Shown here: positions 1 to 64,000 of the stretch, piece by piece
Layout of the letters: every line of letters begins with the position of its first letter
Numbering within the stretch: the stretch's first letter is position 1
Source of the DNA: Bilabrum cf. latius
Taxonomy: Eukaryota
Assembly (NCBI GenBank): GCA_965178125.1
Contig: OZ237747.1
Location: 496,001 to 560,000 of the forward strand
Direction: 5' to 3'
DNA: 64,000 nucleotides
Position numbers and translations under genes: made by a program
The notes under the pieces: model-generated
What the model saw: the letters and a program-made list of their open reading frames with translations, nothing else
Told to the model about the DNA's origin: nothing
Databases searched by the model: none

Positions 1-2730
1 CTTGATCTTCGTTTCAGCAGCACCAGCAGCACCGGAACCGCCGCTAGGACCACTCCCACTGGGACTCTGCCGGCTCTGCGACGCGATCTTCACCATGGCC
101 TCGCTCGTCGCCTTCGATGCAGGCGTGCCGTGATCGTCCGAGCCGCTTTCCTCGTCGCCCTCCCCTGGCTTTTCTCTCTCCAGACGCATGGCGGGCGGAG
201 GAGCTCCAGCCTGCACGGCACTCCTCTGCTCAGACAGCTCGAAATCAGTCGTGTTCGTAGACCCCACGGAGTCACCCATCTCGCTGCCGTGGACACTGTC
301 CCGCATCGAGTTTTTCCACTACCCAGGCAAGTTCCAGCCACCCTGTCTACCTGCCTCGCGGGCCGTGTCCACCACCTCTGATTCCACATCCGGCAGCAGC
401 CTCACCGCCCCCCGCATCCTCTCCACCAAGAACCGACACAGGCCCAGCTCCATCGCACTCGCCGCGCGCCCCCTGTCTGCCACTGAGTCCTGCGCCTGTC
501 CCAGCGCCATCAGCTCCCGCACTGTCATGCGCCCGTCCACTGGCCTCTCCGGGTGCACTGCGGCGATCACCTCCGCCGGAGACAGCTCAGCACTCACGCC
601 GCGCGAGTACATGGCGAACGTCCGCCGCTCCTGGTCCGCCTCTTGGCGCGCCTGGCTGCGGAACATCGCCGCGCTGTCCGCCATCGCGCGGTTCTTCTAA
701 TCCACCATCAGCTGCGTCTGCTGTTCCGACTTGCGGGCCCGCACGGCAGGATCCAGGTCCACGCTCTTGGCCCCGCTGTCGCACACCAGCACGCGCAGGA
801 AGTACCCGTGATGCCCCTGTGTTCCCCCGCTGGCGTCCTCGCTGCTCCCGTGCCACGCCGAGCCCCGGTAGGCTGACCGCTTGTGGTGCGGCAGCACCTC
901 GCACAGCACCAGCACGCTGCCGTTGCGACCCGCCGACTGCACCGCCGAGTGCACCGTGGTCAGCAGCACAAACTGAAGAGCACGCATGTCCACCAGCGCG
1001 CCCACATCGTCCACGAAGCCGTCGCTGTCCAGCCACAGGAACTCCGTCTTGATGTTCTTGCGCAGAGCCAGGCCCCGCACCCTGGCTCGGATGGGCCTGT
1101 AGAGGGCGACGGGGTTGAGAGGCGCGATCCTTGCTTTGAGGGTGCGGCTGGTCGCCTGCTCGTACATGGCCACATCGTTCATGGCTTTGGACATGCCGAG
1201 CGCCAGGCTGTACACGTTGTCGATGGCCTCAATGGGGTCCAGGAAGGAGGTCGCCATCACGGTGCTGCTGCTGTCCCTAGCTCGCTCAGAAGGTTTAGTG
1301 AAACTCCCAGTGCTGATCAGCACGGTTGCAGCCGAGCCCTCGACATTCTTCTCTCCTAGCAGCTTGCTAGGGGGTGCCCTGCGCCGCATACCAGCACCCT
1401 GGTCTGGCCTTGATCCGCCCTATTGCCCCACTGTCATGTAGGAAGCAGAAGCGACAGCTACATCCTGGGACTTCTGCGCCACTAGCACACGCCTCAGCTC
1501 CTCGATGCCGGACAGCTGCTGCCCCAAGGAAGGACCGACCCGATTGCGCACCGCACCCAGCAGCCTCGTCTTCTCTCGCGCCATGTGCTGCAGCACTGCC
1601 GCAGACATATCCAGCTCCTCGCTGAACCGGAGGATGCTCATGCGGGAGAGCACACTCGTCACACCGATCTTCACGCCGATGTCGGCCACAGAGAAGAACA
1701 CATCTCGTTCAAATGCGTCGATCGCCTGCTCCGCTTCCAGGATAAAAATCAAGGGATACACGCACAGCAGCAGCCCCACCACGATGCTCACGGCCCACAC
1801 GCGGCGGCGACTGGCCTCGTTGAGCGCGCGGGCGTGGGCGTCCTGCAACATCAGGGCACAGCCCCACATCGAAACAGAGAAACACAAGCATGAAAGCACG
1901 AACAGAATCCATCGAGCCGCTGGGGGAGATGGCCTCGCCAGGATTCCGAGGATGATCATGACGACATCGGCGATGACGGTCGTGCGCAGGACCTGCACCG
2001 GCGCCTCGACCAGCGAGCCGAGCAAGGCGATGAGCGCCGGCGTGGTCACGAGCCAGTCGATGTACCGAATAGGTACCAGCCAGCTTCCCTCGCGCATGAC
2101 GAGGTTTGGTGCCCACTGCAAGGCTTGGGCCAAGTAGCTTAAAGTGGCCCCGCTTCGGACCAAAGCCGATGCAAGAGTTATCAGGATTGGTGGCCGACTC
2201 AAAGACGGGAACAGCAAGCTGAGCAGATCAAGAGCTAGTAAGACCCCAAAAATGGACGCTGGAACTTCGAATGGGAAACCACTGTCGACGATTGCGGCAT
2301 CGTCAGCGTCTACGTCAGCGACATGCAAACCGATAGCAACTGCAAACAGCACCAGAAACCCGGCTGCTCCCCCAATCATCCAGTATATAACCAATGGTTC
2401 AACACCTAGTTTCCACTGCACCGAGTAATCGGTCTCGTAATCGGCAGCGTCTGCAAACTAGCGCGAATCAACTCCACCGGTGGTTTGGTCGAACGGCTCA
2501 GCAGGCGTAGGGCCACCGCCGTTGCTTCCTTTAGAGACATTCTGTTTCGCTTGGTGTACAGATGATCTCTTTGACTGCGAGGCGAGAGCTAAAACCTTTG
2601 AACCAACTAATCCGTTGCGCGTGCAACCGAGACACTTAAATGGACGTCTTGTACTGTTGCAGCTCACCACACGTGATGAGTCCAGGCCTCCACGCCCCAC
2701 CCCAAATAAAGTTTCCTATAATGAGCTCAT
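1..2730 (-). CDS. Microbial (type-1, 8-TM) rhodopsin fused to a degenerate HisKA/HATPase module; 3' end lies beyond the window edge (>910 aa)
   Basis: Track ORFs 2458-2700, 1420-2421, 697-1389 and 319-684 share one frame, joined by TAG only (2716, 2458, 1420, 697, 319). The frame is open to base 1, with an ATG at 2728-2730. Rhodopsin motifs: helix C IRYIDWLVTTP, helix D ADVVMIILG, helix F YP, helix G DIGVK (Lys codon 1669-1671). Kinase-like segments follow: EKTRLLGAVRNRVGPSL, DMRALQFVLLTTVHSAVQ, LVCDSG, LGLCRFLVERMRGAV. Confidence 0.88.
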
Positions 2731-2813
2731 ACTTGGCTCGAATAAGCTTATTGTGGTGTTCTGGTCTATGCTTGTGTCGTCATCGAACACATGCAAACGG
2801 GTTCGGTTCCGGA

Positions 2814-2840
2814 ATCCCCTTGCGACCATAACTGTCCCAA
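2814..2840 (+). repeat. Left terminal inverted repeat of the transposon
   Basis: 27/27 match to the reverse complement of 5563-5589. Confidence 0.95.
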
Positions 2841-3140
2841 GCTGAACGGCAAAATTCCCAACTTCAGTCGCAAAATTCGGAGCAATAATGTCCAACTATG
2901 GCCCTGTCCTTTTCGGTAATGAAGCAGGTTTTCAAGGAGATTTCAAAACTGTAACCAGATTTTCAGGACGACATGTTCTCTTCAAGCTATGACCGACCAA
3001 AGATGGCGGCCTTGGCGGCCGGCATGATCGCGCCTGGTAAAAATCACAACTGTCCCAACTTCAAAGTCCTAAATATCTCGCATTTCACACTTTTTTTTCA
3101 GGTTTCCAGTATAATAGCAGTATAATCATATATAAAAATA

Positions 3141-5492
3141 TTAAGTTCGACGCTTCTTTGAAGCTGGCATGGCCCTCTTGTTGCTTGCAGCCTAGATCTT
3201 CGCGATCTTGGCCTTGAGGGCCTGATTCTGAGCTCTCATTGCGTCCAGGTTGACTCTAGCCTCCTCAAGCTGCTCAATAATCTCATCTGTGGACTGATCC
3301 TAGAGTGGGCGGTCGCGCATCTGATTTTTCCGCAGCTAAGCGGCGTCACCCCCGCCCCCCCGGGGCCCGATGGCCCCACGGTTGCCTTGCAGCCCCTTCA
3401 GCCTTGGTCGCCTTTTCTGAGATTGTTGTGCCCGAGCTGCGCTTTCAATCTTTGCTTGAAGCCCCAAACCTGCTAATCTCAGGAATGCAGCCGTGTTGGG
3501 GCGTCTCTTCGCCAGGGCATCATGGGCGCTCACCACGCGCTGGGCGCTCGCCAGTCCCCCGAGGTTGTCAGCCGTGGCAGGCCCAAGCACAGCAGACGAG
3601 GATGATGACTACGGCTCAGATGCGCCTGCTCCACTGGCAGCCGTAGTACTCTTCACGAAAGATCCTGACTCTGTCGGGATACTCTCCAGTATTTTGGCTA
3701 CGTCTGACAGCTCACTACCACTGGCCCCCTCCCGGGCCCTCTGCAGCGTGGCCCTGTGCTGCTTGACTTTGTCCATGTCAACTACAACGGAAGGGTTGAA
3801 CGGGAGAAGTCCGCACTTCTTGAATCCACTAGCAGCATTCGAAGCTCGAAAGCTGTGGCTTGCACAGGTCAAGACCAGCGGTGCGATCCACTCCTCCCCG
3901 ATCGCGTCACACGACGCCTTCGCTAGTGCCGACTTCTTCGCCTCCGGGGCAGACGCCATGAATGCTTCCATGAAATGAAGCTAGCTCAGATAGACACAGA
4001 AGTCTTTCTTAACACCACGAAGCTCTGCTTTGAAGGACGACATGCACGCGACGTCCAGGGGCTGCAGGAAGTGGGTGCTCATTGGAAGGAGGAGCTCGAT
4101 GTCGATGTTGTTGGCAGCGCAGAACTTCCTGAGGCTCCGCTGGTCATGCGTCGAGTGGTTGTCCATCGTGAGCAGTACTCTAGCTGTGGGAGGGAGCCTC
4201 TCTTCCCTTCGCACTCTAGCTGCGTACTCCACGATCTTTGGAAGCAGCAGGGACAAGGACCCGACGTTGCTGTAGCCGGAGGGGGTCGCACAGAACACGA
4301 TGATGTCGAGGAGCTCGATGTCCGTCTTGGCTAGCACCAAGAAGAGTTTCTGGACAGACGAGGGGTCCACAACATTCCCAGATAGCCTTACCTCAGCTAG
4401 AATATCCTCGAGCTCCGCCTTCAGGCCGTCGTCGTCGAGCTTGCCCGCATCGCGCTGGGCTTGCGCACGTTGCAACCGGGCTGCCACATATTCCTGCTCG
4501 CGCTGGATCTCGCGTTTGACCTTTTGAGACTTGCCATCGTAGCGGAAAACGAGAAGGCCAGCAACAATTCCATCCTTCGCTGATACAACAGGAACGAATG
4601 ATACGTTTGTATTGGAAAAATGCGTCGCGCGAAGCGCAGCACGGGGCGATTCGGCCCTGACCACCAGACGGTCCGCCCCGTCAACCCTTGCGCCCTACCC
4701 TGGCTGGGCATGCAGTATGATCACAGTCTCATCTATGTTTAACTACAATCGTTCGTGATAAATGCACGTCCCTGACACGACGACGCCAAGCTCAGTATTG
4801 AGTACCAGGCCTCGTTTTGCTGCTCCTTCGCCAAACCAGTCCAGCAAGCACGTGTGGCTCTCCGCCACGCTACGATTGATTGTCTTCTCTTCACCTTGCA
4901 AATCCTTCAGTTTATGAGCCTTTAGAAATCTGGTTGACCACACACGCGATAGTGGCACCCCATCCTTGTGTGAACCAGCACAAAAGTCGTTGCGAAGGCC
5001 TGTTGCAGTTCGGCGCAGTCCTTCAAGCGTGAACGGCACCTTCTCATCCTCTCGCAATATGACCAGCTTCGCAAGTGCCCGTTCAACATACTAGGGCAAA
5101 TCTGTTCGCCAACACAAATCCTGTAGGGGGCACGTTAATCGTTGCTAGATTCGCTGGAATCGCTTCCGGACAGCGCTAAACGTCTTTTCTGGGTACACCT
5201 CATTTTGAATCTCTCGGTAGATTTCACTGTCATTTTGAACCTTACCGGGATTTCTCTCCCTCCACACCTAAAGCTTTTGCTTGTAAATTATATAATCTGC
5301 TTGCTGCGCTTCATATAGTCGCATCTCAGGCTGCTCAGCTGTGCATTCTTCTACCGATTGCTCCAAGGCCGTGCGCCAAGCGAGCACACGATTCACGTCA
5401 TCCACAGACACCTGAAGGATAGCCCGAGTATCCGAGTCGTCAATTGCGTCGAGTATTGATGATTCTTTAGAACTGGAGGAGGATGCTTGCAT
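3141..5492 (-). CDS. pogo/Fot1-family DDE_1 transposase (783 aa with TAG read as sense)
   Basis: I translated one frame from ATG 5490-5492 to TAA 3141-3143. It has 10 in-frame TAGs and no TAA/TGA. It contains a CENP-B-like HTH (ERALAKLVILRE...LSRVWSTRFLKAH), catalytic motifs NIDET, LLTMDNHSTH and LPMSTHFLQPLDV (35 residues between the last two Asp), and a basic C-terminus PASKKRRT. Confidence 0.92.
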
Positions 5493-5562
5493 AACTCTAG
5501 AATTGAGACCTGTATGAGCTCAAGAAGTGGTCGCATTTGAATCTTGGGACAGTTGCAGTTGG

Positions 5563-5589: not shown

Positions 5590-5649
5590 CCGGATTGTTC
5601 GCTGTGCCCGTCTTCCGCTGGCCATCCTTTGGTCCATTGGACCTGAAAT

Positions 5650-7254
5650 ATGGATTACGGCCTATTGTTGTACAGTGCGGCAAGCGTGTTGTCTACTGTT
5701 TGCCTCGTCAGACGAGTGCTACGACGTCCGACGGTTGGAATCGACGAGCCGACAAGCTGCAAATCTGCGAGGCCCTTGTTCTTACTGGACCCGAAAGTAT
5801 CCCATTTAAACCATGGATCGTTTGGATCCTGTCCTAAAGGCATATTGCGACATAGAATGCAGGTACTGAACCGGATTGAGGCATACCCAGATCGGTTCTT
5901 TCGACAGGAAGCCGTTCATGAGTACAAGCAAGCATGTGACATTGCTGGAACACTAATTAGGGCCGAGCAAGGCAGCTGCGTACTGGTGGAGAACGCAACG
6001 CAGGCCATGGACGCTATCGCGTCTTCTGTCACAGTACCGGCAGGATCGTCCGTGATTGTATTTGAGTCTACCTACGGCGCCGTGAAGCGATGTGCCGCAG
6101 CCCTGTGCGAAAAGTCGAGCGCAACCCTTGTGCAAGTTAGCATTGCATTCGGGAGCAACGGGGCTAACGGGCATACATTCCTGGCCCCTCTGGAAGCGGC
6201 CTTGCAGCGCGAAGCAAGCGAGCGCCGATCGGTCTCGCTTGTGGTGCTGGACCACGTCACGTCCCCCACAGGAATCGTGACACCATTGATCGAGATGGCC
6301 CAGATGTGTCGCAAGTACGGCGTGAAGCGCATCGCAGTGGACGGCGCGCACGCCCCCGGACTGCTTGCCGTGGAAGCCAGGCAGCTGGACGAGGCAGGCA
6401 TCCACTACTACTGGGGCAACCTGCACAAGTGGTGCTTCGTGCCTAGGGGAGTGGCACTGCTGCGGGCCGCCCCGGGGGCGCCGCGCAAAGAGCTGCGGAA
6501 CCCGACGGTCAGCCACTTCGCGAAGGAGCGTCTCCAGTGGCAGTTCTTCATGTGCGGCACCAACGACCAGAGCAAGTTCCTGTCTGTGCCCTTTGCCCTC
6601 AAATTCGTGGAGGAGAAGTTTGGGGGCCTGCAAGCTGTTGCTCGGCGCGGGAAAGCACTTGCTCAGCAGGGTGCCGAGGCGCTGCTGGCTCGGTTCAAGG
6701 AGAGGGAACCTCAGCGAACCTTCATCTAGATCGCACCGGCTCCCATGTGCGTCAGCATGGCCACTGTGCAGACCCCTCTGGACGCTCGGTACTTCCTGCA
6801 TCCGTCCCGCCGCCGCGAGCTGGAAATGGAGATGGGCCGGTCCCTGTCCGGTGCGGGTGCGGGTGCGGGCGAGGGTGCGAGTCGGGGTGGGGCTTGGAGG
6901 GTTGCGCCTGACTCCAAGGTGGACAAGGTGGTTGCGACCGACCCGATGGTTGCTGAGAGAATTGCGCGGCTGATCCAGAAGCGGTTCCGCATCCAGACCG
7001 TGGTGTTCCCTCTCGAGGGGAGGCTGTGGTGCCGGCTGAGTGCGCAGGTGTACAACACCATCGATGAGTACGAGGCGCTCGCAGGTGCGATTGTCGCGCT
7101 GTGTGACGAGTGCGACAGCGGAAGGGATCCCCTGATCGAGGGTCTTGAAGAGTCCGACTGGGGATTCGGGCAGGTCGATCAGGACACAGGGGCGATGTGC
7201 GGTGGGTGCGACGGGCCCGAACGCAGGGAATCGGTCACTGGCTTGCTCCAGTGA
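5650..7254 (+). CDS. Class V PLP-dependent aminotransferase-family enzyme (isopenicillin-N-epimerase / Egt2 / L-cysteine desulfhydrase-like)
   Basis: Motifs LNHGSFG, DHVTSPTG, VDGAHAPG, GNLHKW (PLP lysine) and C-terminal RLSAQVYN. ORFs 5650-6729 and 6745-7254 are in frame across TAG 6727-6729; the gene ends TGA. Confidence 0.9.
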
Positions 7255-7452
7255 TTTTTTGCTTCGATATACCCGCCGGACGTGTTGTAATATAATGCAC
7301 CTTTTCACATATTCAGTGTAGAGCGATCGTGCTTGGCAGATATTGCAGGTAGGAAATGGATTTGCCCTCAGCCGGAACGGAAACGTGATTGCGTGTGCTT
7401 TCTGGTTTAAATGCTTGGATTTGTTTCCGTGGAAACCACAAGGTGAAGAGCT

Positions 7453-10209
7453 ATGAGCTTAAAAGCCGCGGCTGCAGCGAGAGCTTTAGCTAGATCTCGC
7501 TCCTAGCCCGCCGCCCAACCGGAGAGGCAGTCGCGCTGGGGAGCACCGACAGCTTCAACGCAGGCATAGCCTCAGCAACAAGCGCATCCTGCACAAATGC
7601 CATCGATGCAGCAGCCGAACATGTCGCAATCTCATGTAAAGTAGTTTAACCAGCAGCCTGCAATGGGTTCTATGCATCAAGGAATACCTGGTGCACCATA
7701 GACTAACCAGGCTGGATTCCATCCGGGACCTCGGCCGCACTTCGGCCAAGCTCCCATGGTGTTCTACCAGTAGGGACCTCGGCCCAATGCGCCGGCTTTT
7801 CCGTACAACTACCCAAGACCTGCCCCAATGATGGTGCCTGGTGGGCCAAGAGTCCAATATGGATACCCTCCGCGAGGATTCCAGCCTGGTTTCTAGCCAG
7901 GGGCTGCGCGGCCACCTCAACTCCCATTTGGGCAGGCAGGCCATGTAGGATTTGCGGGTGGCAGACCAGGACTACCCCCGGGTGTCCAGCCGCCGCGCGC
8001 AGCAGCGAGCGGGCTGGCAGGAAGGCCGATGCAGTTCGTCCAGGCGAGCCAAGGAACGGGCAGCACCGCAGCTGCCACCACGCCGGCCCCTTCCTCCTCG
8101 TCCGCCTCGTCCGCTGCTCACCAATCGTCGTCATTATCCTCTGCATCTTCAGTTGCACTGACGTCATCTACAGCCACTCAACGACCCGCTAGCTCTCCTA
8201 CCTCGGCCACATACGGCGGGCAGGGGCAAGGGCAGGGGCAGGGGCTGGCATCCTCCACTCAGCACCACGCCAGCGGCATCCCTGCAGCGTTTGGAGGCGC
8301 GACCGCCGCCGCGAGTGGGATGAGTGGCCTGGGCCCGACCAGCGCGATCATGGGGGACCTTACGACAGCAAGACTGTCTATTTGGGTTGGCAAGCTGCCG
8401 CCGACCGACGTGGTGCCTGCAGAGGCGGTCGAGGCCGCCATCCGGCGGGCTGTGAGGCCCGGCAGGTTCGGCCTACTGGGTTGGGAGAGGGCGGGGCAGG
8501 CTATCGCAGGCGCTGGGACAGGTGCCCGCCCCAACGGAGCTGCGCATGGGGAGCGCGCGCCACTGAAGGGATTCGGGTTTGCGACGGTGGAGGGGGCTCT
8601 GGCCGCTGCCAGGTTGTGTTCCCTCGATGGCATCAAGCTGTGGGAGGCGGAGGAATCCGGTGAGGGAGCGGATGGAGGGCATCGGAGCCACGAGGGCGAA
8701 TCCTGGTCCGGCGGGATCGTCGTGAAGCTGGGGAAGGAAGCAGAAGCCGTGATGCAGGCGTGGACGCAGCAGCGGGCGCAGGAAGCCCGCTAGGCTCGGA
8801 GGAGGGCCCGCCGAGAGGCCGCTGCCAAGGCTAGAGAACAAGCGGAGCAGGAATCGAAAGAGGGGAAGGAAGAAGACGGTGAGCAAGAATCACAGGCAGT
8901 GCAAGATACCAAGTCAGAGGGTGCGAATGCTGCTGTAGAGGGGGATCCAGAGACGCAAGCATCCGCCGGAGATGCCAAGGCAGATGAGCGGCATCAGCCT
9001 ACCCCCCAGCAAGCAGGCGAGGCAGTGGGGGGGAGTATCAGAACGGCAGCATCAGCTGACGAGCAAGTGGGAACCGCTTCTGGTAGTGCGTCATCCACGG
9101 CAGCAGCAGGCGAGAGCGAGACTCCAACTGCAGGTGCGACGGCTGCTGCTGCTGGTCAGCAGCAGGAGCCTGAAGCTAGCGCTGGATCAGATGACAGCAG
9201 CGATTAGGAAGACGAAGGAGAAGAGCCTCAATTCTCGCAATTCGTGGACGGCAAGGGGGCTCGAGACGCGGCCATGGAGGCAGCCAAGCTGGCATTCCAG
9301 AGCGTGCTTCAGCGGGAGGGCAGAACCACAGCGGTGCGGCAGAGGCCTGGAGTGAGCCTGGTGTCGCAGTTTCGGGAACAAGCGGAGAAGGAGCAGCAGG
9401 CCATGAATGAATGGAAGCAGCGCATGGCCAAGGCTGCCAAGGCACGGGCAGAGGCAAACGCGAAGCGGGCAGCTAAGGAGCACCAATCGCAGACTCGTTC
9501 GAGCGGTGGCGACGCAGGGCGCAGAAGTGAATCCGCCAGTAGATCCAGCCAGCCTAGAGGCGATGAAAGGAGCTCATAGGGCAGGCACCCTTCGTTTGGT
9601 CGTGATGACGGTCGCGGGGGAGGCCGGTCCAGATTTGAGGCACGCAAGCCAGTGGATGCTCGATTCGTTGACGACGATAGTGATAGCGACGACAACGCTG
9701 GCAGGGACTAGGGCTAGCAGGCTGCAGCTGGTTCAGCGCAAGCTGACTCGGTCGCCGCGGGGGTGAAACGTGACCGACCAGACACGGAGGGTGGGGCGAG
9801 CGGCCAGTCTGCAGGGAAGCGTGCCCGTGTGGATGACTCGGCGCCGTCAACAAGCGAGGTAATTGATTTGCCCCCGCTGGATGCCGAATCCGTGAGGGCA
9901 AGGGTGCATGCAACGCTGGGTCCATTCGTATCGCAGCTGTTCTCTGAGGAAGAGTCGGGCAGCGCCTCCGAGGGAACTGCCCAGGCAGCTTACTCGGAAG
10001 ATGTCCAGGAATTCTTGGGGTTTGTGGCTTCAATCGCAACTGAGGCAGCAAGCAAGTTGCATAGTTTGGCGGCAGACGACACGGACGCCCTTGCCTCGGC
10101 GGAGACTGCTTTTGTGTAGTCTGTAGTGAGCGAGTTCGGAGAGGTCATTGGAGAGGACGAGTCATAGCAGGTGGGAAACCTAGCTTGGATTGCGATCGTT
10201 GGAAAATAA
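7453..10209 (+). CDS. RBM25/Snu71-like splicing factor (Pro/Gln-rich N-terminus, RRM, charged region, PWI-like C-terminus), 918 aa
   Basis: Single frame from ATG 7453 to TAA 10207-10209 with 13 in-frame TAGs. RNP2-like IWVGKLP and RNP1-like LKGFGFATV; helical PWI-like tail (LGPFVSQLF...EFGEVIGEDES). Confidence 0.72.
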
Positions 10210-47092: not shown

Positions 47093-47213
47093 GCTACTTG
47101 CAGACGAAGTGATTCGACCGCAACGGCAATATGGATGCCTCATCTTCAGTATGTGTAAGGTCGCAACTTGAGCAAGGAACCAAGAAACAGGTGCGACCGC
47201 TGCATTTTTGCGT

Positions 47214-47496
47214 TCCAAATCACACATCAAAACATCAACTCATTGCGTGTCGGTACCCATGGCTGGCCGCGCACTCCTGCGCGCACAGCAGAGAAGCCAC
47301 CGAGACAGATCCGGCGCGCAGAGCCGCCGCGTAGCTCCATTCGCCCAGATCCAGCCGGACGAGCCTCTCCATCCGAACGCTCACGCTGTTCCTGTCTTCC
47401 AGCCCCTCACTCAACCTTGGACACCTCGTCAAGCATGCGCCAAGGCGAGCGAACCTCTCCCCCACGGCCTGGCTCGAGTGCCCGTGCCTGCTCACC
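47214..47496 (-). pseudogene. Duplicated 3' fragment of the GT4 glycosyltransferase gene (copy of ~49574-49862)
   Basis: The 86-codon frame differs from the GT4 C-terminus at 7 residues and keeps the same TGA and the downstream TCCAAATCACACAT. No catalytic domain lies upstream of it. Confidence 0.8.
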
Positions 47497-48024
47497 TTCT
47501 AGTCCGGTTGGGGCAGCTCAGAGGTGGAGGTCCTGTGGCACTATATCATAGACCACGTTATACAGGATCGAGGAGAGCTGCAGCAGGCTCCAGTCTGAAT
47601 TTACTACTGCGCCACACAGGTCCTCGATACTCCTCATTGCCGAGCCGACCTGTCGTTCCAAGTGCTTGGCTGGGTTCAGTACATGGAGGCTCTTTACAAT
47701 GCTATCGTCCATCTTGACATATTTCCGCTCGGTGCATAGACGGAAGCCTACGTAGTCATATCGGTGCACTAGCTTGATTGCTTCAGGTGGGCCCTAGCAC
47801 GTCGTGTCCGGAGCTGTCCGACTCATCAATTTCCGCAAATGCGCAGGATCCAACGTGGTGGCAGACCCTTGCTCCGGACACGACGTACCGGGGTCCACCT
47901 GAAGATCTGTGCATCTTCCGACTATGCTGGCCCGAAACAGTGCGAGACGACGTTTTCCGCAACATCCAGGGTTGGTCGCAAGGCCAGCAGACCCAGAGCA
48001 AAACAAGGCCACTCCGCTCGCAAG

Positions 48025-49491: not shown

Positions 49492-49600
49492 TGCGGGCGG
49501 GAGATGTATACGCTGACTGTGTCTGTGTGTACACTGAAGCCGTTTGCAAGCTTCTTGCGCAGCATCATCGCGATCCAAATCACACATGGAACGCCCGGAA

Positions 49601-52600: not shown

Positions 52601-53254
52601 GATCCGGAACTTGCTGAGCACCTCTTTGGGTTGCTTGTTCCAGGCCTCCAGCGCGACTCCAGGGTCGGCGAGGAACGGATCCAAGAGACTTTGCAGAGTC
52701 GTATTATCGGCTGAACTGGCGAGGAGCAACTTGGCTTCTATTTCAGACGTCATCAGCCCAGCCGTGCGCAAGAAATTCTCCGCGTCTTGCAAGGCTGTCC
52801 TCGCACCAGAGAGCGAGGCAAGTCCTCGACGCCCGGCGAGTTCGCAACAGTGTTGCAGTAGAGCATTCTTCTCAATGAAAGTGCGGCCACTTTTCAAGTC
52901 AAAGTGGCCCAAGTACAAGTTTAGCACTGCATCGAATCCAACTTGCTTTGCGGGGCTCTGAAACGTGTATCTGTCATCAGGATGCGCGATCCGAAGCGCA
53001 TCGCACACCTTATTATTATCTGGTACAATTACAGCTCTATTTGCTGCACGACTCCTTTGGTTCTGCATACCCTGTGTCATGCGAGAATCAATAGCATCAA
53101 CGCTTGCGGCTGACCTCTCTTCTCGGTGAACTGCACCTCGAGAGCCGCAAATACTAAGTACTGCAATTATGAATACTACACATTTCCACTGGCAAATGTG
53201 CTGTGCAGGGCTAGCCATTGCTGTGGGTGCAGCAAATAACGAAGTGGCAGCCAT
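49601..53254 (-). CDS. GT-B fold glycosyltransferase family 4 with an N-terminal signal/anchor, ~1,217 aa
   Basis: Motifs TIGYLGRLGPEKG, FKIIGSG and FPSLREESETFGVSNLESLLTGVP (E-x7-E). Three track ORFs are in frame across TAGs (50831, 50411, 50276); ends TGA. Confidence 0.85.
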
Positions 53255-54055
53255 TGTGATGATGGTTTGAGCCAAAATTACCGATGCCGAAACTAACTAA
53301 CCTTGGCCGTATCTTGTTAAACTGCGGAACAAGAGTGACAGATAGCAGCTCTTCGCGCTCTGAATAAATCGTGGGTTTTCAATCCTCCTCGCATGATCCG
53401 GCGGTGCAGAGCAGTGCAGTGCAAATCTATGCTTGGAACAATCCAATATATAAATGATTTGATTCAATTCATTTTGCACATGAGATCACCCTCAGCGCGT
53501 GCGGTTCTCAGAATCCGTGCTGGTGGTCGCTGTCACCTAAGGGCCGGGTTACGTGGCTACCTTCGGACCCACCACTGGCATGGGCCCAGTAGGGACAACT
53601 TCACTGAGAGTTGCTTCTGCGGCTGACTCAGACTGTGAGCGGTTCGAGCTGTGCATCTTAGATGGGACTTGACCATCATTGCTGGGCGTCCACCGTCCTC
53701 CCTGCACCGGGCACCAACGACTATTGACCCAGTGTGGAGTGGGTGGAAAGACTCTCCGTCCGAGTCGGAGTCTCCGAGTCCGAGACTTCGATAGTAGTGC
53801 TAGTAAACTACCTTACGATTGCATGCATTTCTGCAGCGGCCCAGACTTTGATTGTCTAGCCCAATCGCACCCAAATCCGGCCCAAACTGGTTACCATCCT
53901 TAAGTTGCGAGCAGTTACAGTATTACCTGAGGAATACGGAAGCGTCGGCACGCTCACTTCCTCACAGAGTTTGCTCGGGAATAGCCAGGACTCACCTGGT
54001 TCAGTCTCACTGATACTTCTTGTTCTATCTGTGTCTAACATCCAAGCCCTCCAGC

Positions 54056-57000
54056 ATGAGCTCGCATGGGCAGCACTAGTCCTGGCCGGAGAGGATGTAC
54101 TCGAACGGATTGTAGGCTCTCTTTGGTCTCGGTTTCACCTTCTCCAAAGACACGCAAGACGACACCAAGTGGCTTTTTTTGTTCAGTGCATTCGTTTCCG
54201 AGGTTCAGACCCTGAGCTTTGCGCTGAATGACTCGGACATGCTCCCGTGGTAGAACTCGCAGCTGCTAGCACCCATTGTTGGAGCATTTAGCTTTCTGAG
54301 CGAGCCATTTGACCCCAACAATAATCCCACGGGATATTTGGTTCTTTTAGCCGTGGCGGCGTCTTTTGTAGCAACGTTCTTGGTACTTGCTGCTTAGGCT
54401 GGTGAGTCGAGCGCCTACATCAGCTGCATTTCGCGCCAAGGCGCTTCTGGCCCCAGCACCACAAGTGGTTGACCCTTTTCCCCTTTCATCACAGGCAGAA
54501 ATTTTGTGCTGGAGTAGCCTCAAGCACCATACTTGATTCGAGGCCTTCGTTTCATTGCTTCGGCCAGTACCGGTGTCCTGTTCTTGCCTGTTGCGGGTTT
54601 CTTGCTGCGTGGCGCGTCCTGCCCGGCGGATGGCTCGAGTCAGTGGCTGAAGACATCTATCGAGTGCGGTTCGCCAACGCATCTCGTCCTCTCAATTGTC
54701 TTCTCCATACTTACGCTGGGCTTCAGTGCGCTCTCGCTGTTCGTGGCGGCTGTGTTTGTAGACAGAAGGCCAACCTCTCAGTCGTGGTCTGCAGTAGCTA
54801 CAGGACGGAGCGCTGTCATCAGTCTATCGATCCGACTGCTGCTGTCTTTCTGCTACAGCGTGTTGCGCAATACGCTAGTCGGCACACCTGGGTTCAGCGC
54901 GGTGCTCATCCTGATTGGAGTAGGAAAGGTATACCAATACGGGGTATGGGCACCGTATACCCACAGGGACATCAACGCATTTTTCGCAGCTAGCGGGGGG
55001 GCCTTCGCCGTTGCGTCGGGTAGCCTGTTGGTTGCCTAGTACTTGGGAAGCGGTGCTGCATCCCTCGGAATCCTTTTTGGTGTGCCCATGGCTGCGGTCA
55101 TGACGTACGCGGTAATCAGCCGAAGGCTCGATCGGCTGGCTCGCTAGCCTCTTCAAAAATGCGTTACGGTGCACGACATGCACCTCTGGGGCCGGCGGCG
55201 GCTGCAGCGGCACGTCATCGTGAAGCAGATCCTCGAGCGAGTGGACACAGAGGCGGACGCTGCGAGCGTGTACCAGACCATGAACGCGAACAAGCGGGGA
55301 AGCCTCTACGACCAGAATGCCGCGTAGAAACCAGCCGAGGGAGAGCAGTCAGGATCCAAGGGCGCCGAGGGCTCCGATACGGACGCTAGCAGCGTCGTTA
55401 GCATGGGCGCCGAGACGGAGTCCATGTCGTCGAGGAGGAGAGCCAAGGAAACATCCGTGTATCGGGCCGGCCCGGCAGATTACCGGGGCGTCCATCTGCA
55501 ATCTGTGGAGAACCTGCCTCCCCACCAGCTTAAAGCAGAGCTCTTGTTCCTGTAGGGAGAGGCGAGAAGGGCCTACGAGGGAGCTGCAGAGGCCTTTCCA
55601 ACGGATGAGCTGGCCTACATCGGGCTGTCCATCTTTGAGAGAACAACAAGCAGGTACCGCTACAGGGAGTGTGTGGCTCTCTCGTAGGCCCTGCGCTGCT
55701 CACCGCCACTGGACTCAAGGTACTACATCGCCCAGCGAGTTCGAGACATGAGGGAATCGGATGGATTCGGGCTCAGCTCCGTCGATCGCGTCCTGTTCGA
55801 CTCGGCGCTCCGAGAAACTTCTCAGCTGAGAGTGCTTGCCTACTAGCTGCTGGTCCGCATGTTTGGGCACCTCACTGCTCAAACGCCCGACCTGGCCGAC
55901 CTGCTGGACATCGGTGTCGCGCTGCACAACACGGTGGAGCGAGCTGACGAGGCCTATCGCAGGCTCTTCAGCTTCAACAGCGACAACGCGACTCTGCTAC
56001 GACAATTTGCGGGGTATCTGACCGATTTCCGAGCGGATCCTAGCCGTGTGCAGGAGCTGTTGCAGAAGGCGCAGCGGGTGGAGGAGCAGACCCGCAAGCA
56101 GAAGCAGAAGGTCCTGCGCACCGTCAAGTTTGGGGCAGTGCAGCCCGGCCAGTCGCGATTCGACGAGTCTGCGGCTATCATCACAATTTCGGCTGCGCCA
56201 TTTCGCCTTGGTGAGATCCTGCATGCCTCGCAGTCTGCTTGCAGGCTCTTCAATTACGCCCCGCACCAGATGATCGGCCAGAACGTCAGCATCGTTGTGC
56301 CTCATCCGCTGGATTCTATCCACAATCAGCTTCTTTAGGCGTTCTCCAAGCGTAACCGACGGAGCAGGATTGTGGGCCGGACGCGACTGCTCTTCGGGAG
56401 GCGGAAGGGGGGCACGATCATTCCGATCTGGCTTGCGGTGAACGAGGCGCCGCCGGATCAGGACACTGCTGAGCCTCGATTCACAGCGGAGATCCAAGCT
56501 GTGACTACAGACCAGAACTTTATTCTGTTCGGAGGATCCCAGCAGAACTTCAAAATCTACTCGGCTTCGACTGGCAGCCTCCGCTTGCTTGGCATCGAGA
56601 TGGAGGACGTGGACAGCGACGTGGTTAGCATGTCTCAGTACTTCCAGTCTGTGGAATCGACGTACCAGGAGCGTGCGGAGCTCTCCAAGGACCACATCAA
56701 GGCGATCGCATCCACACCCGGGGTGATGGATCTGTACCAGTGCCTGGGTAGGGCAGAGGTTCTGAGAAGGCACCAGAGCCGACAGGTGCGTGTCAGAGTG
56801 CAGACTGCTGCGGCTGGCGGCAGCGAAAATGCGGTTGTTCCTGGGGATGCTACCGACGCTGCCAACGCGTCTGCTCATTTCGTGCAAGGCAGCGGCAAGG
56901 CAGCACAAATTCGCGAGGCAACGTCAGGACCTTGTGCAAACCAAGTGCTGATCCGATCCATGCAGCATCTGCAGAAGCCTGGCTTGATCCCTGTGCGCAC

Positions 57001-60000
57001 CCGCAGCGGCGAAGCTCTCATTGTGGGCCAGGTTCAGGTTGCACACCTGCCTGTGTTTGGATCGTTGAGCATCTTGGGCTGGCATTCAATTCCCAAGCAA
57101 GCCACGGATAGCCGACCCAAGCTCCTGCGAGTCATGTCGAACCTTCAGAAGTCCAGAGGCGCACCCGAGGACAATCCGAATGGCACCGCACATCAGCTGG
57201 AGCGAATAGGAGGGGCGGCTAGTGCATCGCTGGCACCACAGCGTAAGAGCGACTCACCTATTGCACAGGCTGCTGCAGCAAACCGTATTTCTGGCGGAGA
57301 AGCTTTGCTAGGAAACGAGACTCTCGATCCCTCTGAAACGCTACCTGCAAGTACCCAGCAAGCAGCCTAGTCTTCGGCTCCTCTACCAGGCCAAGTACAA
57401 CTTCGAAGCCCAGTGCAAGGAACTCCCAGGGAAGAGACTACGCCTCGGATCGTGCAGGACGATAGTGATGAGAGCGCGGATGGTGTGCACCAGGACGACG
57501 AAGCTGCCGGCTCGTCGGGCGATGACACTGCAGATGGTACAAGCCGGTCGTCCACTGAAGGCAGCACTGACGGGACAGGCAGCGAAAACGAGCCCGAAGG
57601 TCCTAGCAGCGCCACAGTTGTACCCCCTGTGGCTGGTTAGGCATCAATTGGCCGCGCAATGCTAAAATCTGCAATGCGCCAGGGCTCTCGAGCGATGGGA
57701 GCACCCAGCGAAGACAACCGCAATGCCCAGCGGTGGTCAGCGCCCCCTGCAAGCACCGGTCAGCAGTCTATGGATTCAGCGCGGTACAATCAAAATCGTC
57801 CATCTAAATCAGTAGTACAGGTAGCAAGACTGGCAGCTGATCGACCCCCCCTAAGCTTCGCGGCAGGATCAGAGCGCAGCAGTCACTCAGGCACTGGACG
57901 AGACGCACTCAGCAATGCTATGCAGATGTCTCAGACTACCACTGAGTCTCAGATCGTGAATTCATCCAGGTTCTTGCTCGCATAGGCCGCGTTCGTGATG
58001 GTAATTGGAATCGTAGTTACGATTTTTACGAGGAACTACGTCGCGGTGCTAGATGACATCTCGTCGACGCTATGGCTATCTGGTCGCAGGCAGCTTGCTT
58101 TCCTGAGCGCAGAGAGTAAGCTTGTTTGGCAGGCTTCGAAAAACGACCTGGGCTTTGAAAGCCTGTACCAGCCCACGATGACCGGGTTGCAATCAGACAG
58201 GACCGACTCAGGCACCGCAGCTCGAAGGATGACGGAGTACAATTTGTCGCTACTGTCGCGAGCTGCCCTGCACAATCCAGGACCACTGCAAGATCTGTTG
58301 CTGCTGGACGCGGACGAGATACAAGATGCCCATGGCAGGCTGTACGTTGCTTTGGAGCGCGCGTCAGTGCCAGACTCTTTCGAAATCACTGCAGAGTTAC
58401 CTATTGTGCTGCCCGAGCAGTCTGGGGGTGGAACCCAGCTCAAGACCACCGCGGAACAGTTGCAAGAACTGGTAGCTGCCTTGCGCCGGGTAGCCAAAGG
58501 AGCAGCATCATCGGTGTCGCAAAGCATGAGGGATGTTGAGTACGTGCTGTCGAATGCAAACTCGTTCGATCTTAGCATGGCGTACGCAAGCAAGAGGCTC
58601 TACGGAATCCTTGCATCAGACATTGCGCAGTTCACGACGCAAGTCTGGATGTTTGGAGCCATTACCACTGGGATACTTCTGGTGTTCGGTGCATCCTCCT
58701 TCGTGTTACTGTTGCGACAGCTAGGACACAAAACCGACCAGGTGCTGCGCGTGTTCATGCTCGTATCAGCAGGTCAAGCCAAGCGGCTTGTGCGATACTC
58801 GCAGAAGAGCCTTGAGAGGGTACTGGCCGAGACCCAGTCGATCCTAGAAGAGGCGTCTACGGATGATGAAGATGACTTCGACAACATGGAGGACGATTTT
58901 ATGGGTGAATCGGACTCTGACGTGGCATCTGCGGTCGGCATGCAGGATGGTGGACAAGTTCAGTTTGCGCAGGGGCTGCAGAACGACGACCTGAGAGAGC
59001 TTCAATCGGGCCTGCAACACGGATCATCCCCAGCTACCCAATCTAGGAGCAACCCCGGCTCAGTGGCATCGGGTAAGTCCTCCAAGCAGCAGCGGTACGA
59101 GAAGCAGAGCAAGGCGCTTGCCAAGGCCAAAGCCACCATCCGGAAGTACAACAACTCGAGCTCGTTCGTGTGCCGATCTATCCTCTGCCTGCTTTTGCCG
59201 GTCACTACTGTGCTGATGTACGCCGGTGCACTCCTGTTGATCCAAGACAACCTCAGTCGCAGCACGAGCTTATCAGCCAGGCGGATTGTGACAGCGCAGG
59301 CGCTGGAAGCCAAGACGTTCCTGCTATCCACCAGGCTGCAGTCGCTGGCTGGATCCGTGTGGGAGCTGGAGACTACATCAAGTGCCCCTAGGGTAGAATT
59401 TCTACAGGCTCGCATAGCGAATGAGTCCATCGTGATCGCCGAGCACACCCGGGTCATCGAGCAAGTGGCTTCGATGCTGGCGCTCGGTGGGGAGGCAGAC
59501 GAAGATAGGCTCATCTTCTCAGACTTGGCCCTGGCCGATGCCCTCTTTGACGATGCGCACGGACACATCAAGCTGGATCCCATCTCCGAGAGCGGCAGCG
59601 GATAGACGGAATCGGACGTCTACAAGACCCTCAACGTGGATGGCTGCCTGGATACCGTGTACCTCTCTACGAGCATAGAGGACATCATGGAGCAAGCCAA
59701 CACCAACAAAGTTGCGCCGCCCGTCGGTACGGCGGGTACCGGCGTGGGGGCTGCCGCTACGCAGGTGGATGCCGACTGCCGGGCCCTCCTCAACGGAGTG
59801 GTTGCAGAGGGCATCATTTCGTCCTTCGCGTCTCTCACGTTCCAGGCGCGGGACTTGGCCGCCACCGTTTACGCCAATGTGACTGGCAACAGCGTGCAGG
59901 ATGCGATCGGGGACGTCGATCTCGATGCGAGAAGGCGGCTGCAGGTCGAGGGCAGCGGGGGCGTCATGCTGCCCGGCAACGTTACGCTCGACGAGCTGCC

Positions 60001-60385
60001 CTTGAGCCAATACGCCAAGTACCAGGCCGACATGCTTCGTGATCTGCTGGCACCCTACATGCAGCATTCACTGGATGTGATGAGTGCGAAGTTCTACCTG
60101 AGCATTGCCGCTGGACTCTCACGGATCGGCAGGGTGACGGAGATAGCCACGTGGGTGTTCGTCGGATTTTTCTTGGTTACCACGTTCGTGTATATGTCGC
60201 AGATGCAGCTGCTGCAGCTGCCGCTGCAATCAGCCCGGTAGATGCTGATTCTCCTTCCCCAGCCGCTTCTGGCTGGTCACTTGGCCCTGCAAGGAGCCAT
60301 CAAGGAGATCACTAAGGAGATGCAGAGCGGCGCCGGGACTGATGTTAGGCAGGTTGGGGCAGCGGGGACACCAGCCTCCGTCTGA
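54056..60385 (+). CDS. Large multi-pass membrane protein with a PAS domain (tmcB/tmcC-like architecture), ~2,080 aa
   Basis: N-terminal TM cluster, then YRRLFSFNSDNATLLRQFAGYL, then PAS (GEILHASQSACRLFNYAPHQMIGQNVSIVVPHPLDSIH), then a second TM group. Intron 54402-54494; at least 12 in-frame TAGs; ends TGA 60383-60385. Confidence 0.8.
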
Positions 60386-60586: not shown

Positions 60587-63541
60587 ATGCAGAGCACTAT
60601 GAACGCTTCCATTATCAAGTGCATGCACGCGTCTGGCGTTAGCATCCGACCGCTTGGACCTGGAAGCTTCGTAGCGATCGTTCGTACGACCAGTAGGAGG
60701 AGAACCCGATCTTGGAGCATTCTAGCCCGCGGATTCAGCAGCTCGTTTTGTGCAAGTAAAACAAAACTTGGCTCCAGCAAATGGCTTGGTCACCGGGAGG
60801 AAAGCGTCGACAGTATTCACGACGTGAATCCAGCACAGAAGCGCACGCACAGAAGGAGGAAGCCTTACCGCGGCAGCAGGCTGAAGGGCAAGGCGCAGCT
60901 ACTCGAAGACACAGGTGAACCCGTAGATGCAATCGATGAGTTGCCAAGAGCAAGTGCTGCGTACTCGGCCGTTCCAACCTACGGAGCAGGCGTCCTGATG
61001 CGACCAGAGATTGCAGAGGCGACTGCAGCAGCACAGCCGAAAGGGCTGTTTGGTCGAATTCGGGCTGCTCTCGGCCTGTCATCCGGTACTCCAACCGTAG
61101 TTGTTCTGCAACAGCCCCGGATGCGCCCAAGGACTGGCCGATCCGAAGCAGCGGTCGCTGCAGTGCCTGGCATGTCGCAGCGAAGCATATCGAGGAAGGG
61201 CCAGCAGGCGCTCTCTCGCTCGCCCATGCCCCAAAACGACGGCCCTCGGCTGCAATTTCTTCGTCGTCTCACAGGCAATCTCGGACCGGTATTCACGCTC
61301 ATTGCCTACGGCTGCTCCGACGTGCTCTACCTCCGGGTGTTCATGTCGGCGGGCACGCTCATGTCGATCATCTTCAACGCAGCGCACAGGCCGCCCATCT
61401 GGATACCCATCTGGTGGAGCATGTTCTTTATCCTTCTGAATGCGGTCATGGTGTACCGATTGCTGCAGGAGCGAGCAGACGTGGAGTTCACCGAGGAGCA
61501 GATGGACTGCTATGAATCGGCCTTCCAGCCGCATGGGTGGACACCAAGGCAGTTCCAGCGGCTTCTGCGGGCTGGAGCTGAGTTCAGAGACGTTGAAGAG
61601 GGAGATGAGCCCGTGATAGAGGGCGAGGTGACCGACGAAGTGGTATTCCTGGTATCTGGCGCGGCGGACATGCAGGTCGCTGGCAAGAAGATCGGTACTC
61701 TCACCCAGGGATCCTTTCTGACGTCACTCGCCTGCCTCCTGCCGAGAGAGGAGGCCGAGGCCGCGGAGCTGGTCGCACAGGCGGTTGCAGCGAGAGAGCG
61801 TCAGCAGGAGCAGCAGAGGGAGGAGGACGAACGCACTCGGAACAGTGAACCGAGCCAGAGCCCCGTGCAGGCCGTGGCCACCGGGGTGGCCTCTGCGGTC
61901 AGGGCACTCAGCCCCGTGGAGCCTCCCTCAGGGGAACGGTCTATTAGACGAACAAGTGAATCGATCGTCAGTGCGTCTGCTGATAGCAGCAGCAGCGACA
62001 GCAGCGGCCGCGCCTCCAGAAGCACCCTCAGTCTTGCGAGGCGAATCCCACTGAACAGTTCGTTGGAACGAGACGGTTTCCAATCGAGCAGCGAGGCGAT
62101 TGCCGGGACCAATCATCTCCTGGACGCGCCGACCACAATGACCACCCTTTCATCCGCGCGAAAACCCGCCGGTTAGCCAACCAGTTATGTTTTGGATGAA
62201 GGCAGGGACGACCCGCCAGCCGCCGGATCGATCCCCTCGACCATCGCCTCTCTCAGCCGAAGCGTGCCTGACCTGGGTCGGGTCGCTGCTGCCCTGAGAC
62301 TGGCCCACGACTCGCCCGCTGTGAGCAGAGACAACCGGCGGGCCGAGCAGGCCGCCGTGGATGCGGCGACGGACGAGGTGCTGAAGGAGGAGCAGCACCG
62401 GAAGAGGCGAAGGGACAGAGACCAGATTGGCTCGCGTGTTGGGGACATGATGCGGAGCGTCTCTTCGTTTGACCAGGACGTGAGGGAGTCCTTGGGGATG
62501 GGTGGTGACGCCAGGCGAGGCGGGGTGTACAGGAGGTCCGAAGTGGACCATGACGACAGAGACAGTCGCGTGGAGTCTGCTGCAGTGTTCATGCGCGCCA
62601 GGGCGAGGCAGGGCGCTGTCGCGAACCAGATCAGGCGTATGCTGGAAGAGGTAGAGGACGAGGACGACAGGGCAGCGGCTGCGGCCCGCGTGTCTGGGCG
62701 CGCCGATGCCCCTGGTCTGGCTGCAGGTGCGCAGTCCTAGGACGGCGAGATGGAAGACGTGGCGAGGAAGATGCCTGGGCGGATGCTGCTGGATGTGCCT
62801 GCCTCGGCCATCGCGGGCTCGAAGCACGCGGCAGGAAGTACCGAGAAGCGGACTGGCGATAGTGCAGGCAAGAGCACCGGCCTATCGGATCGCCAGGCGG
62901 GTACAACTACTTCCGCTGCAACGTCCACCGGCAAGACTGGTGTGTCTGGCACCGCTCCGCCAGAGCAGCTGCCCACCCCGCTGACAGCCGCCGCCTCCGG
63001 CTCGACCGCCTTCAGATCCACGAGCACGATGCGGGTCGCCACACCCGATTCTCGCATCCTCGTGTGGCCGCTCAAAGAGCTCAAGGAGTGCGTGGAGAAC
63101 GACAGGTCGCTGCAGTACCCGCTCATGTCTCTCGCCGCTGCCGAAATGGCGGGTAGGCTGCAGCTGGCCACGCAGCAGATGCAGCGGGTGCACCGGTATC
63201 GCGAGCGGTTGCAACTTATGATTCGGCAGAACGACGGCACGCTTCGAGGGGCAGACAAGCGTGAGCTGGCCGAGCTGAGGGAGTCGCTCGGCGTGGCTGA
63301 TGCCGAGCACTGGGAGGCCCTCCACGCCCTGGGCTGGACCAGGAAGGACTACCAGAACGGGTACTCCAGGACGCAGACGAGGGCGGAACGGGCTCGTGCC
63401 GCGAGGAAAGCCGTCAAGAGCGTTCGCAAGTCGCTGGAGGGAGCGGTCAACAGCCTCGCGGGGCTGTTTGGCGGCGGAGGATCAGGTTCCAAAGACGCGA
63501 CCGAGGCACGCAGAGAGCAAGAATCGCCGGGGCGGCAATGA
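60587..63541 (+). CDS. Popeye-like 3-TM cyclic-nucleotide-binding-domain protein, ~980 aa
   Basis: TM block GNLGPVFTLIAYGCSDVLYLR...WSMFFILLN, ERADVEFTEEQMDCYESAF, cNMP barrel VFLVSGAADMQVAGKKIGTLTQGSFL and later RILVWPLKEL. TAGs at 62174 and 62738; ends TGA. The start could be 60587, 60599 or 60623. Confidence 0.78.
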
Positions 63542-63677
63542 TTCTAACCGACAGTCTAGTCCTGGTGGCATCTATTGCATGTGTATATACGCGGCAGATG
63601 AGCTAAGCAGCGTGTACAATATCAACAATACAGCCATGGCTGCCAATTCCTTAGGAGCCAGCCACCGAATTTTCGTC

Positions 63678-63980
63678 TCAAGTGCCACCCCGCTTCGTAG
63701 ATGTCAGTGTCCATGAGGGAACTTCCACACTCTTTATCCGATCAGTGTGAATGGCTGTAACACCCATGAATGGTTTGCTCTCTCGTTCCAACTGCACACT
63801 CTCGGTGCTTGGCTCGCTTTCTGAAACCTTCGATGCCGACTTGCCTCCAGACATCAAAGTGGTGCGAGCAAGCAAAATGTTGCTATCACCATCCACAGCG
63901 ATGAGATCCCCCTCCACAACACGCTCGTCCTCGAGCGTAAGGCGGACAGGCTCGCCCATCAAACGCTGCAGAAACAGCAT
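63678..63980 (-). CDS. Sm/LSm-fold protein, most like Naa38/LSMD1 (may start beyond the window edge)
   Basis: Sm1 VRLTLEDERVVEGDLIAVDGDSNILL and Sm2 FMGVTAIHTDRIKSVEV; ends TGA. Confidence 0.75.
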   Translation of the reverse strand: MLFLQRLMGEPVRLTLEDERVVEGDLIAVDGDSNILLARTTLMSGGKSASKVSESEPSTESVQLERESKPFMGVTAIHTDRIKSVEVPSWTLTSTKRGGT

Positions 63981-64000
63981 TTCCTGTCCTGACTTGGACA

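Follow-up and report, generated by a model that had tools for sequence, protein, structure and literature searches.

Probable reassignment of UAG to glutamine in the nuclear code of a stramenopile-like protist

Introduction

Whether TAG ends genes or encodes an amino acid, and if so which one, is the question raised by a 64,000-nucleotide (nt) stretch of contig OZ237747.1 (positions 496,001 to 560,000; NCBI GenBank assembly GCA_965178125.1, deposited as Bilabrum cf. latius), referred to here as the window. An initial annotation, made from the letters alone, had proposed that TAG is a sense codon throughout the window, on the grounds that in 15 of 17 genes consecutive open reading frames (ORFs) lay in the same frame and were separated only by TAG (more than 80 cases). 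The results presented here indicate that UAG is very probably an ordinary glutamine codon in the nuclear genome of this organism, with UAA and UGA as stops. NCBI translation table 15 has the same assignments.

The window is nuclear DNA of a protist, as shown by GT..AG spliceosomal introns of about 90 to 150 nt that were seen in transcript-derived contigs. Its G+C content was 56 to 62% throughout, and about 59% overall.

Results

TAG as a sense codon in long open reading frames

Under the standard code, and reading from stop to stop, the longest ORF of the window had 1057 amino acids (aa) and seven ORFs reached at least 500 aa. When TAG was read as sense, the longest ORFs extended to 3229, 2718, 1970, 1294, 1088 and 1070 aa, and 16 ORFs reached at least 500 aa. 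In 14 ORF segments, which together comprise 17,279 codons, 104 in-frame TAGs were counted (about 0.6% of codons), and further TAGs were located in other exons outside the 14 segments (6727, 32260 and 48823, among others), giving roughly 110 sites in total. The complete absence of in-frame TAA and TGA from the 14 segments arises by construction, since ORFs were delimited by these two triplets; the mean counts per off-frame in the same segments were 163 for TAG, 60 for TAA and 304 for TGA. The in-frame density of TAG was thus about two thirds of background, in ORFs of thousands of codons without TAA or TGA, and those of 1000 to 3200 codons also lacked any frameshift. Counted as glutamine, TAG would represent about 12% of the codons for this residue (104 of 887, the remainder being 555 CAG and 228 CAA).

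Fifteen gene-like units were recognized in the window, and TAG was found in frame in 14 of them, close to the count given by the initial annotation, whose proposal of a sense TAG across the window was borne out. All eight coordinates at which it had cited a TAG carry this triplet on the coding strand, either directly on the plus strand (32719, 32791, 48823, 19747 and 20575) or as CTA on the plus strand within minus-strand genes (4743, 18429 and 18444). The units on which the following sections draw are:

3141 to 5519, minus strand: DDE_1 (pogo-like) transposase ORF of 792 aa, with 10 in-frame TAGs including 4743 and 4695, ending in TAA.
7447 to 10209, plus strand: low-complexity protein of 920 aa, with 13 in-frame TAGs, six of them in its Gln/Pro-rich N-terminus, ending in TAA.
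10416 to 18572, minus strand: ORF of 2718 aa without a Pfam family, with 24 in-frame TAGs including 18429 and 18444, ending in TGA.
18946 to 22212, plus strand: APC-family amino-acid permease, with five in-frame TAGs (19084, 19747, 20575, 20938 and 22060), ending in TGA.
27592 to 31950 (upper limit approximate), minus strand: SLC12-type cation-chloride transporter, with introns and no TAG.
32004 to 34825, plus strand: kinesin-13 in four exons (introns 32269-32361, 32551-32646 and 33257-33407), with TAG at 32260, 32719 and 32791, ending in TGA.
37450 to 47139, minus strand: ORF of 3229 aa with a weak EML-like beta-propeller match and a coiled coil, with 19 in-frame TAGs and an intron at 46910-47003, ending in TAA.
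47599 to 49491, plus strand: ankyrin-like ORFs (sub-threshold Ank), with TAGs including 48823, ending in TGA.
54473 to 60385, plus strand: protein of 1970 aa with TmcB-type TPR and PAS domains, with 13 in-frame TAGs including 56336 in PAS, ending in TGA.

Regarding the placement of TAG within domains, the transposase TAG at 4743 stands directly before the NIDET motif, as had been described, and the kinesin TAGs at 32719 and 32791 do share one exon, delimited at 32647-33256 by RNA joints. The location of TAGs inside ankyrin repeats was put too strongly, given that the ORFs at 47599-49491 showed only sub-threshold Ank matches (20.5 to 21.0 bits, against a cut-off of 21.1) and that the 2718-aa protein, which contains 18429 and 18444, has no Pfam family. 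Similarly, 19747 and 20575 do lie within the permease ORF as stated, yet the former falls in an insertion that is absent from 110 of 120 homologues.

The prediction that annotation under the standard code would fragment genes is matched by existing records. Three public protein pieces of 74 to 110 aa (P0245, P0246 and P0249) derive from a 95-99% identical copy of the transposase on a single 2710-nt contig, and P0246 and P0249 are cut exactly at transposase TAG positions 84 and 259. The third, P0245 (95% identical), ends opposite a CAG of the window and was dropped as a clue, since its end may be the contig end.

The SLC12 gene was the only unit free of TAG: its 1057-codon ORF contains 31 CAG and 4 CAA, and an upstream exon ORF of 241 codons likewise lacks TAG, while about four would be expected at the overall share of 11.7% of glutamine codons. 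Some genes, perhaps those with high expression, may avoid TAG.

Conservation of TAG in spliced transcripts

All or part of the stretch was contained in 13 public sequencing runs from eight studies. Four of them (X1, X5, X7 and X8, from three studies) were compared with the window over 20 kb (31001-51000). Run X1 had uniform depth and lacked all three kinesin-intron joints, and therefore behaves as DNA. Contigs from X5, X7 and X8 (studies P2 and P4) had the three kinesin introns precisely removed (32268/32362, 32550/32647 and 33256/33408, all GT..AG); none of the 13 runs is on record as RNA, and the RNA content of these three is deduced from such spliced contigs. One contig from each study (X7:14 and X8:19) spans the exon 32647-33256 with no other letters and no gaps, so TAG 32719 and TAG 32791 are present in spliced mRNA, and the same two contigs also span TAG 32260 unchanged. 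Other contigs of X7 and X8 were identical to the window at TAGs 38443, 38629, 38644, 38659, 39337 and 48823, and none of the 28 variant places listed over the compared 20 kb fell on a TAG. The presence of TAG in mRNA, which had been named as a check, was thus confirmed at the level of contigs, and the TAGs are neither spliced nor edited out.

These results bear on the possibility that the TAGs are untranslated, being assembly errors, signs of pseudogene decay, unrecognized introns or targets of RNA editing. No point in support of it was found. Four runs from three studies agreed with the window at the TAGs covered, ORFs of up to 3229 codons had neither frameshifts nor in-frame TAA or TGA, the spliced contigs retained 32260, 32719 and 32791, and TAG 32791 was conserved in a relative (see below), so that this explanation can practically be discounted. 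The argument of the initial annotation for a reassigned codon rather than decay is consequently upheld by the long uninterrupted ORFs, by the TAGs in spliced contigs and by the occurrence of TAG at other glutamine positions in the relative.

Within the region compared, the summed contig depth of X5 and X8 rose to 120-200 at 41673-42339, compared with about 12 in the adjacent sequence, and loose ends occurred at 41701-41737. This segment contains the simple repeat (GCAGGC)n, translated as a run of Pro and Ala, and the spike most likely reflects cross-matching of a common repeat.

TAA and TGA as terminators

UAA and UGA are terminators in this code. Reading TAA as sense left the longest ORF unchanged at 1057 aa, and a longest ORF of only 1396 aa resulted when TGA, the most frequent of the three stop triplets in this DNA of high G+C content, was read as sense. 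When TAA was added to TAG as sense, the top ORFs became barely longer (e.g. from 2718 to 2720 aa), from which it follows that TAA terminates. The 14 defined gene ends comprised 11 TGA and 3 TAA.

A code in which TAG has two meanings was also considered; it would specify glutamine within genes and terminate translation at the ends of certain genes, and some ciliates have context-dependent codes of this type. Nothing direct supports it. Because ORFs were extended across every TAG, one that terminates some genes would escape notice, which counts against a purely sense TAG, and several genes have a TAG 15 to 50 codons before their TGA or TAA. On the other side, all 14 gene ends examined reach TGA or TAA, and reading TAA or TAG as sense adds little past those ends, bearing in mind that contigs cannot show where translation ends. 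A double meaning of TAG is accordingly regarded as quite improbable, and a TAG that is read as sense wherever it occurs in frame remains the preferred explanation.

Identity of the encoded amino acid: a close relative

The residue was addressed by comparison with a close relative, found by scanning metagenome contigs with the TAG-free part of a kinesin exon. An environmental contig of 2396 nt (L001) carries an orthologue of the kinesin with 88% protein and 77% nucleotide identity, and SLC12 exons adjoin the kinesin in L001 as they do in the window. Among 340 aligned codons, 301 were identical. TAG 32719 of the window is replaced by CAA in L001, CAG 32248 and CAG 32413 of the window are replaced by TAG, and TAG 32791 is TAG in both. 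The nine glutamine codons of the window were paired with CAG (5), CAA (2) and TAG (2), while its 23 glutamate codons were paired with GAG (14), GAA (7), one codon for D and one for N, and never with TAG. All three alignable swaps involved CAA or CAG, and therefore TAG acts as a synonym of these codons. As L001 uses the same code, the change predates the divergence between the window and L001.

The scan also provided 79 other kinesin loci, with identities of 62% or less; no gain in ORF length from reading TAG alone was observed in the 26 of them that measured at least 3 kb. In-frame stop triplets inside the kinesin match occurred in 34 of the 80 related metagenome loci (L001 included), most of which had both TAA and TAG, and in 11 loci TAA or TAG stood at the invariant glutamine of the P-loop motif GQTGSGKT. 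This pattern fits organisms with a ciliate-type code in which UAA and UAG specify glutamine (UAR = Gln, NCBI table 6), and serves as a positive control for the method. Two loci (L033 and L035) had TAG only, at two sites each, opposite E118 and D150 of the window. No relatives of the transposase were found by scanning metagenome and genome contigs, and self-comparison of the window yielded no paralogous coding segments that paired TAG with another codon.

Identity of the encoded amino acid: homologue columns and composition

The evidence from distant homologues was ambiguous. At kinesin TAG 32791, glutamine was found in 111 of 120 sequences and, after local-pair alignment, in 111 of 114 (the rest being one H, one M and one E). 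Tyrosine, hinted at by animal kinesin-13 at this position and present only in the animal type, was ruled out, given that the column has Q in 111 and Y in 6 of 120. Kinesin TAG 32719 lies in a variable column. At permease TAG 20575 the column is mixed, with 38 R, 31 E and 14 Q, and glutamine is present in five of the six closest homologues aligned there. Transposase TAG 4695 (context AQPG-X-G) corresponds to glutamine in four of five distant homologues, as judged by eye from printed sequences, and the remaining transposase TAGs are at variable positions. Six local alignments at TAG 56336 of the PAS domain gave three Q and three A. Leucine and serine found no support, as the 32791 column is dominated by glutamine and the swaps with L001 involve glutamine codons only.

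The composition of the surroundings of TAG was evaluated by comparing the sequence context of the 104 TAGs with that of every amino acid, in half-windows of 3 to 15 residues and against gene-matched resamples. The log-likelihood difference LL(Q)-LL(E) around TAG was +8.1 to +19.7. Resamples of true glutamines had means of +6.2 to +9.6 and the TAG value was inside their range, while the observed value was reached by only 4, 3, 3 and 0 of 500 resamples of true glutamates. A Gln/Pro-rich tract (aa 1-165 of the gene at 7447-10209), which includes the repeat GFQP-GFXP, contains 6 TAG, 20 Q and 1 E, with a probability of 7e-6 if TAG were glutamate and 0.076 if glutamine. Conversely, TAG is absent from a coiled coil of 355 aa that contains 67 E and 25 Q. 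The windowed co-localization of TAG with individual residues was not discriminating, since all residues fell under the uniform baseline, with Q always above E. Arginine equalled glutamine in the composition test and was excluded by the alignments (0 of 114 at 32791). Composition favours glutamine and rejects glutamate.

Glutamate was the best candidate after the first alignments. If TAG encoded it while UAA and UGA terminate, the code would be of a type not yet described. Several observations weigh against glutamine and mostly in this direction: permease TAGs 19084 and 20938 lie in columns rich in glutamate (E 68, D 24 and Q 4, and E 81, D 10 and Q 3, respectively, of 120 homologues), all three animal kinesin-13 structures displayed carry Glu at position 32719, and one transposase homologue has E at window aa 125 (by eye). 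A rough multiplication by hand of column frequencies from distant homologues made glutamine and glutamate about equal. In addition, TAG 32260 is located where exon 1 ends and had no alignable counterpart in L001, and the decision for glutamine draws on one close orthologue (three swaps and one shared site) together with the composition tests. Glutamate was nevertheless rejected on the kinesin column (E in 1 of 114 at 32791), on L001, where 0 of 23 glutamate codons of the window pair with TAG and 3 of 3 alignable swaps are with CAA or CAG, and on composition, given that no more than 4 of 500 true-Glu resamples reached the statistic and that the absence of TAG from the Glu-rich coiled coil has a probability of 7.6e-4. 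On balance, a glutamate assignment appears highly improbable and, as judged from these sequence comparisons, TAG most likely encodes glutamine.

Candidate readers of UAG

The proposed glutamine decoding would involve a tRNA-Gln with anticodon CUA, which pairs with UAG and not with UAA and would lie one base change away from the CUG anticodon of tRNA-Gln, together with a release factor eRF1 whose recognition of UAG is lost or weakened and which still reads UAA and UGA. Domain 1 of eRF1 carries the motifs GTS, NIKS and YxCxxxF, and in Iotanema a substitution (T32G) affects the residues in contact with the third base of the stop codon (PMC5304391). No tRNA genes were detected by ARAGORN in the 64-kb window, a result that weighs against this proposal only in that the reader tRNA was not seen, and no Rfam families were found in the window.

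Alternatively, UAG could be read by near-cognate wobble of a normal tRNA-Gln (CUG or UUG) combined with a weakened eRF1, without a dedicated tRNA(CUA). Natural glutamine tRNAs may act as UAG suppressors, which is a point in favour of this possibility, and the lack of tRNAs in the window is uninformative in this respect. However, efficient decoding of UAG is needed, because TAG makes up about 12% of the glutamine codons and occurs in conserved domains. Furthermore, tRNA(CUA) is the expected reader in the UAG-only codes described so far (PMC5304391). Decoding by wobble is therefore considered unlikely, and a dedicated tRNA-Gln(CUA) the better candidate.

Gene content of the window

Pfam domains were assigned in 12 of the 15 gene-like units. 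The units not listed above are:

1 to 2931, minus strand: ORF running off the start of the window, with a Bac_rhodopsin domain (PF01036, E 4.9e-20) and a long extension, and six in-frame TAGs.
5647 to 7254, plus strand: class-V aminotransferase similar to Egt2-type C-S lyases (PF00266, E 9.3e-11), with one in-frame TAG (6727), ending in TGA.
24087 to 27456, plus strand: ORFs in two frames without a Pfam match, with 3 + 1 in-frame TAGs, ending in TGA.
34969 to 37347, plus strand: RING-finger protein, with four in-frame TAGs, ending in TGA.
49601 to 53485, minus strand: protein with a glycosyltransferase group 1 domain, with four in-frame TAGs, ending in TGA.
60587 to 63541, plus strand: POPDC/cyclic nucleotide (cNMP)-binding-like protein, with two in-frame TAGs, ending in TGA.

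The Bac_rhodopsin domain occupies aa 251-423 of an ORF whose protein exceeds 976 aa. The long regions on both sides of the domain lack a Pfam match, and the protein may be an enzyme-linked or sensory rhodopsin. The aminotransferase matched PDB entries 5uts and 9aza with E values of about 1e-25, and its closest solved structures were Egt2-type hercynylcysteine sulfoxide lyases (PDB 5uts and 5v12, E about 1e-24), a similarity that hints at an ergothioneine-type C-S lyase chemistry; an antisense ORF of 550 aa without a family overlaps this gene. The ORFs at 24087-27456 look lipase-like by the motifs GHSLG and GDDVVPR. The best PDB match of the kinesin-13 had an E value of 5.5e-57, and the joints of the SLC12 gene were CT..AC, the gene being on the minus strand (31382/31512, 31617/31707 and 31771/31862). 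No usable PDB match was obtained for either giant protein, for the C-terminal part of the 920-aa protein or for the lipase-like region, and the search with the TmcB-like protein gave four matches only.

A direct repeat of 263 nt with 93.9% identity (47234-47496 and 49600-49862) flanks the 2.1-kb segment that contains the ankyrin-like ORFs, and its second copy extends into the 3' end of the glycosyltransferase gene. The two copies could be an LTR (long terminal repeat)-like pair or the result of a partial segmental duplication.

Affiliation of the host

The best named matches of the permease were from oomycetes (about 39% identity), and those of the kinesin were from Chattonella, Nannochloropsis, Chrysoparadoxa, oomycetes and Hondaea (56-62% identity). 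In a single-domain FastTree analysis, the window protein grouped with an unnamed transcriptome protein and with one whose label gives a dinoflagellate assembly as its source (local support 0.84-0.98). Hondaea belonged to the adjacent outer clade, and branches measured about 1 substitution per site. Judged from these proteins, the host is probably a stramenopile within the stramenopile-alveolate-rhizarian (SAR) group, L001 being its only close sequenced relative.

Discussion

A code with UAG as glutamine and UAA as stop is of an already described kind, and what looks new here is the lineage. UAG specifies glutamine, with UAA and UGA still terminators, in the fornicate Iotanema spirale (PMC5304391) and in the ciliate Protocruzia tuzeti and some phyllopharyngean ciliates (PMC11687900); in phyllopharyngeans UAG is described as glutamine or leucine. 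The code of the window would resemble those of Iotanema spirale and Protocruzia tuzeti in that only UAG is reassigned, to glutamine, that UAA stays a terminator, and that tRNA-Gln(CUA) is the expected reader. It differs in its setting: the genome is G+C-rich (about 59%) and has introns, its proteins are closest to stramenopiles, and the host is neither a ciliate nor a metamonad.

Codes in which UAR specifies glutamine are listed in PMC11687900 for many ciliates, Hexamita, Streblomastix, ulvophyte algae and Amoeboaphelidium. They share with the window the conversion of a stop codon into a glutamine codon and the interchange of TAG with CAG and CAA; in contrast to them, with TAA also glutamine, TAA ends 3 of 14 genes here and its reading as sense yields no gain in ORF length. 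Reassignments of UAG alone to other residues are reported there for the rhizarian exLh (leucine) and for Scotinosphaera (serine), and a ciliate with UAA as lysine and UAG as glutamate is also described (PMC11687900, PMC10553269). These three cases are similar to the present one in that UAG and UAA differ in meaning, and unlike it in the residue, which is most likely glutamine here.

Searches of full-text literature, in which most subscription journals are missing, yielded no stramenopile with a reassigned UAG. The chances seem about even that the window reveals a nuclear stop-codon reassignment without precedent among stramenopile-like lineages, with a clade-level change of UAG to glutamine in at least two organisms (those of the window and of L001, whose kinesin coding sequences differ at about 23% of nucleotides), independent of those of ciliates, metamonads and green algae, and in a G+C-rich genome where TAG is not rare. 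According to PMC5304391 and PMC11687900, only a handful of lineages other than ciliates are known to have altered nuclear codes, and cases in which UAG and UAA have different meanings are even rarer. Another independent change, in a genome rich in G+C, would bear on the origin of code changes, on the need for codon capture at low TAG usage, and on how eRF1 loses the recognition of UAG alone. The host is apparently culturable, and several runs, including transcript-bearing ones, contain its DNA, which would make the system tractable for the search of tRNA(CUA) and of the change in eRF1. In practical terms, gene calling with the standard code splits nearly every gene of the window, and annotation needs UAG as glutamine; if the code is indeed shared at the level of a stramenopile-like clade, standard-code annotation of the genome, and the protein predictions derived from it, would be fragmented.

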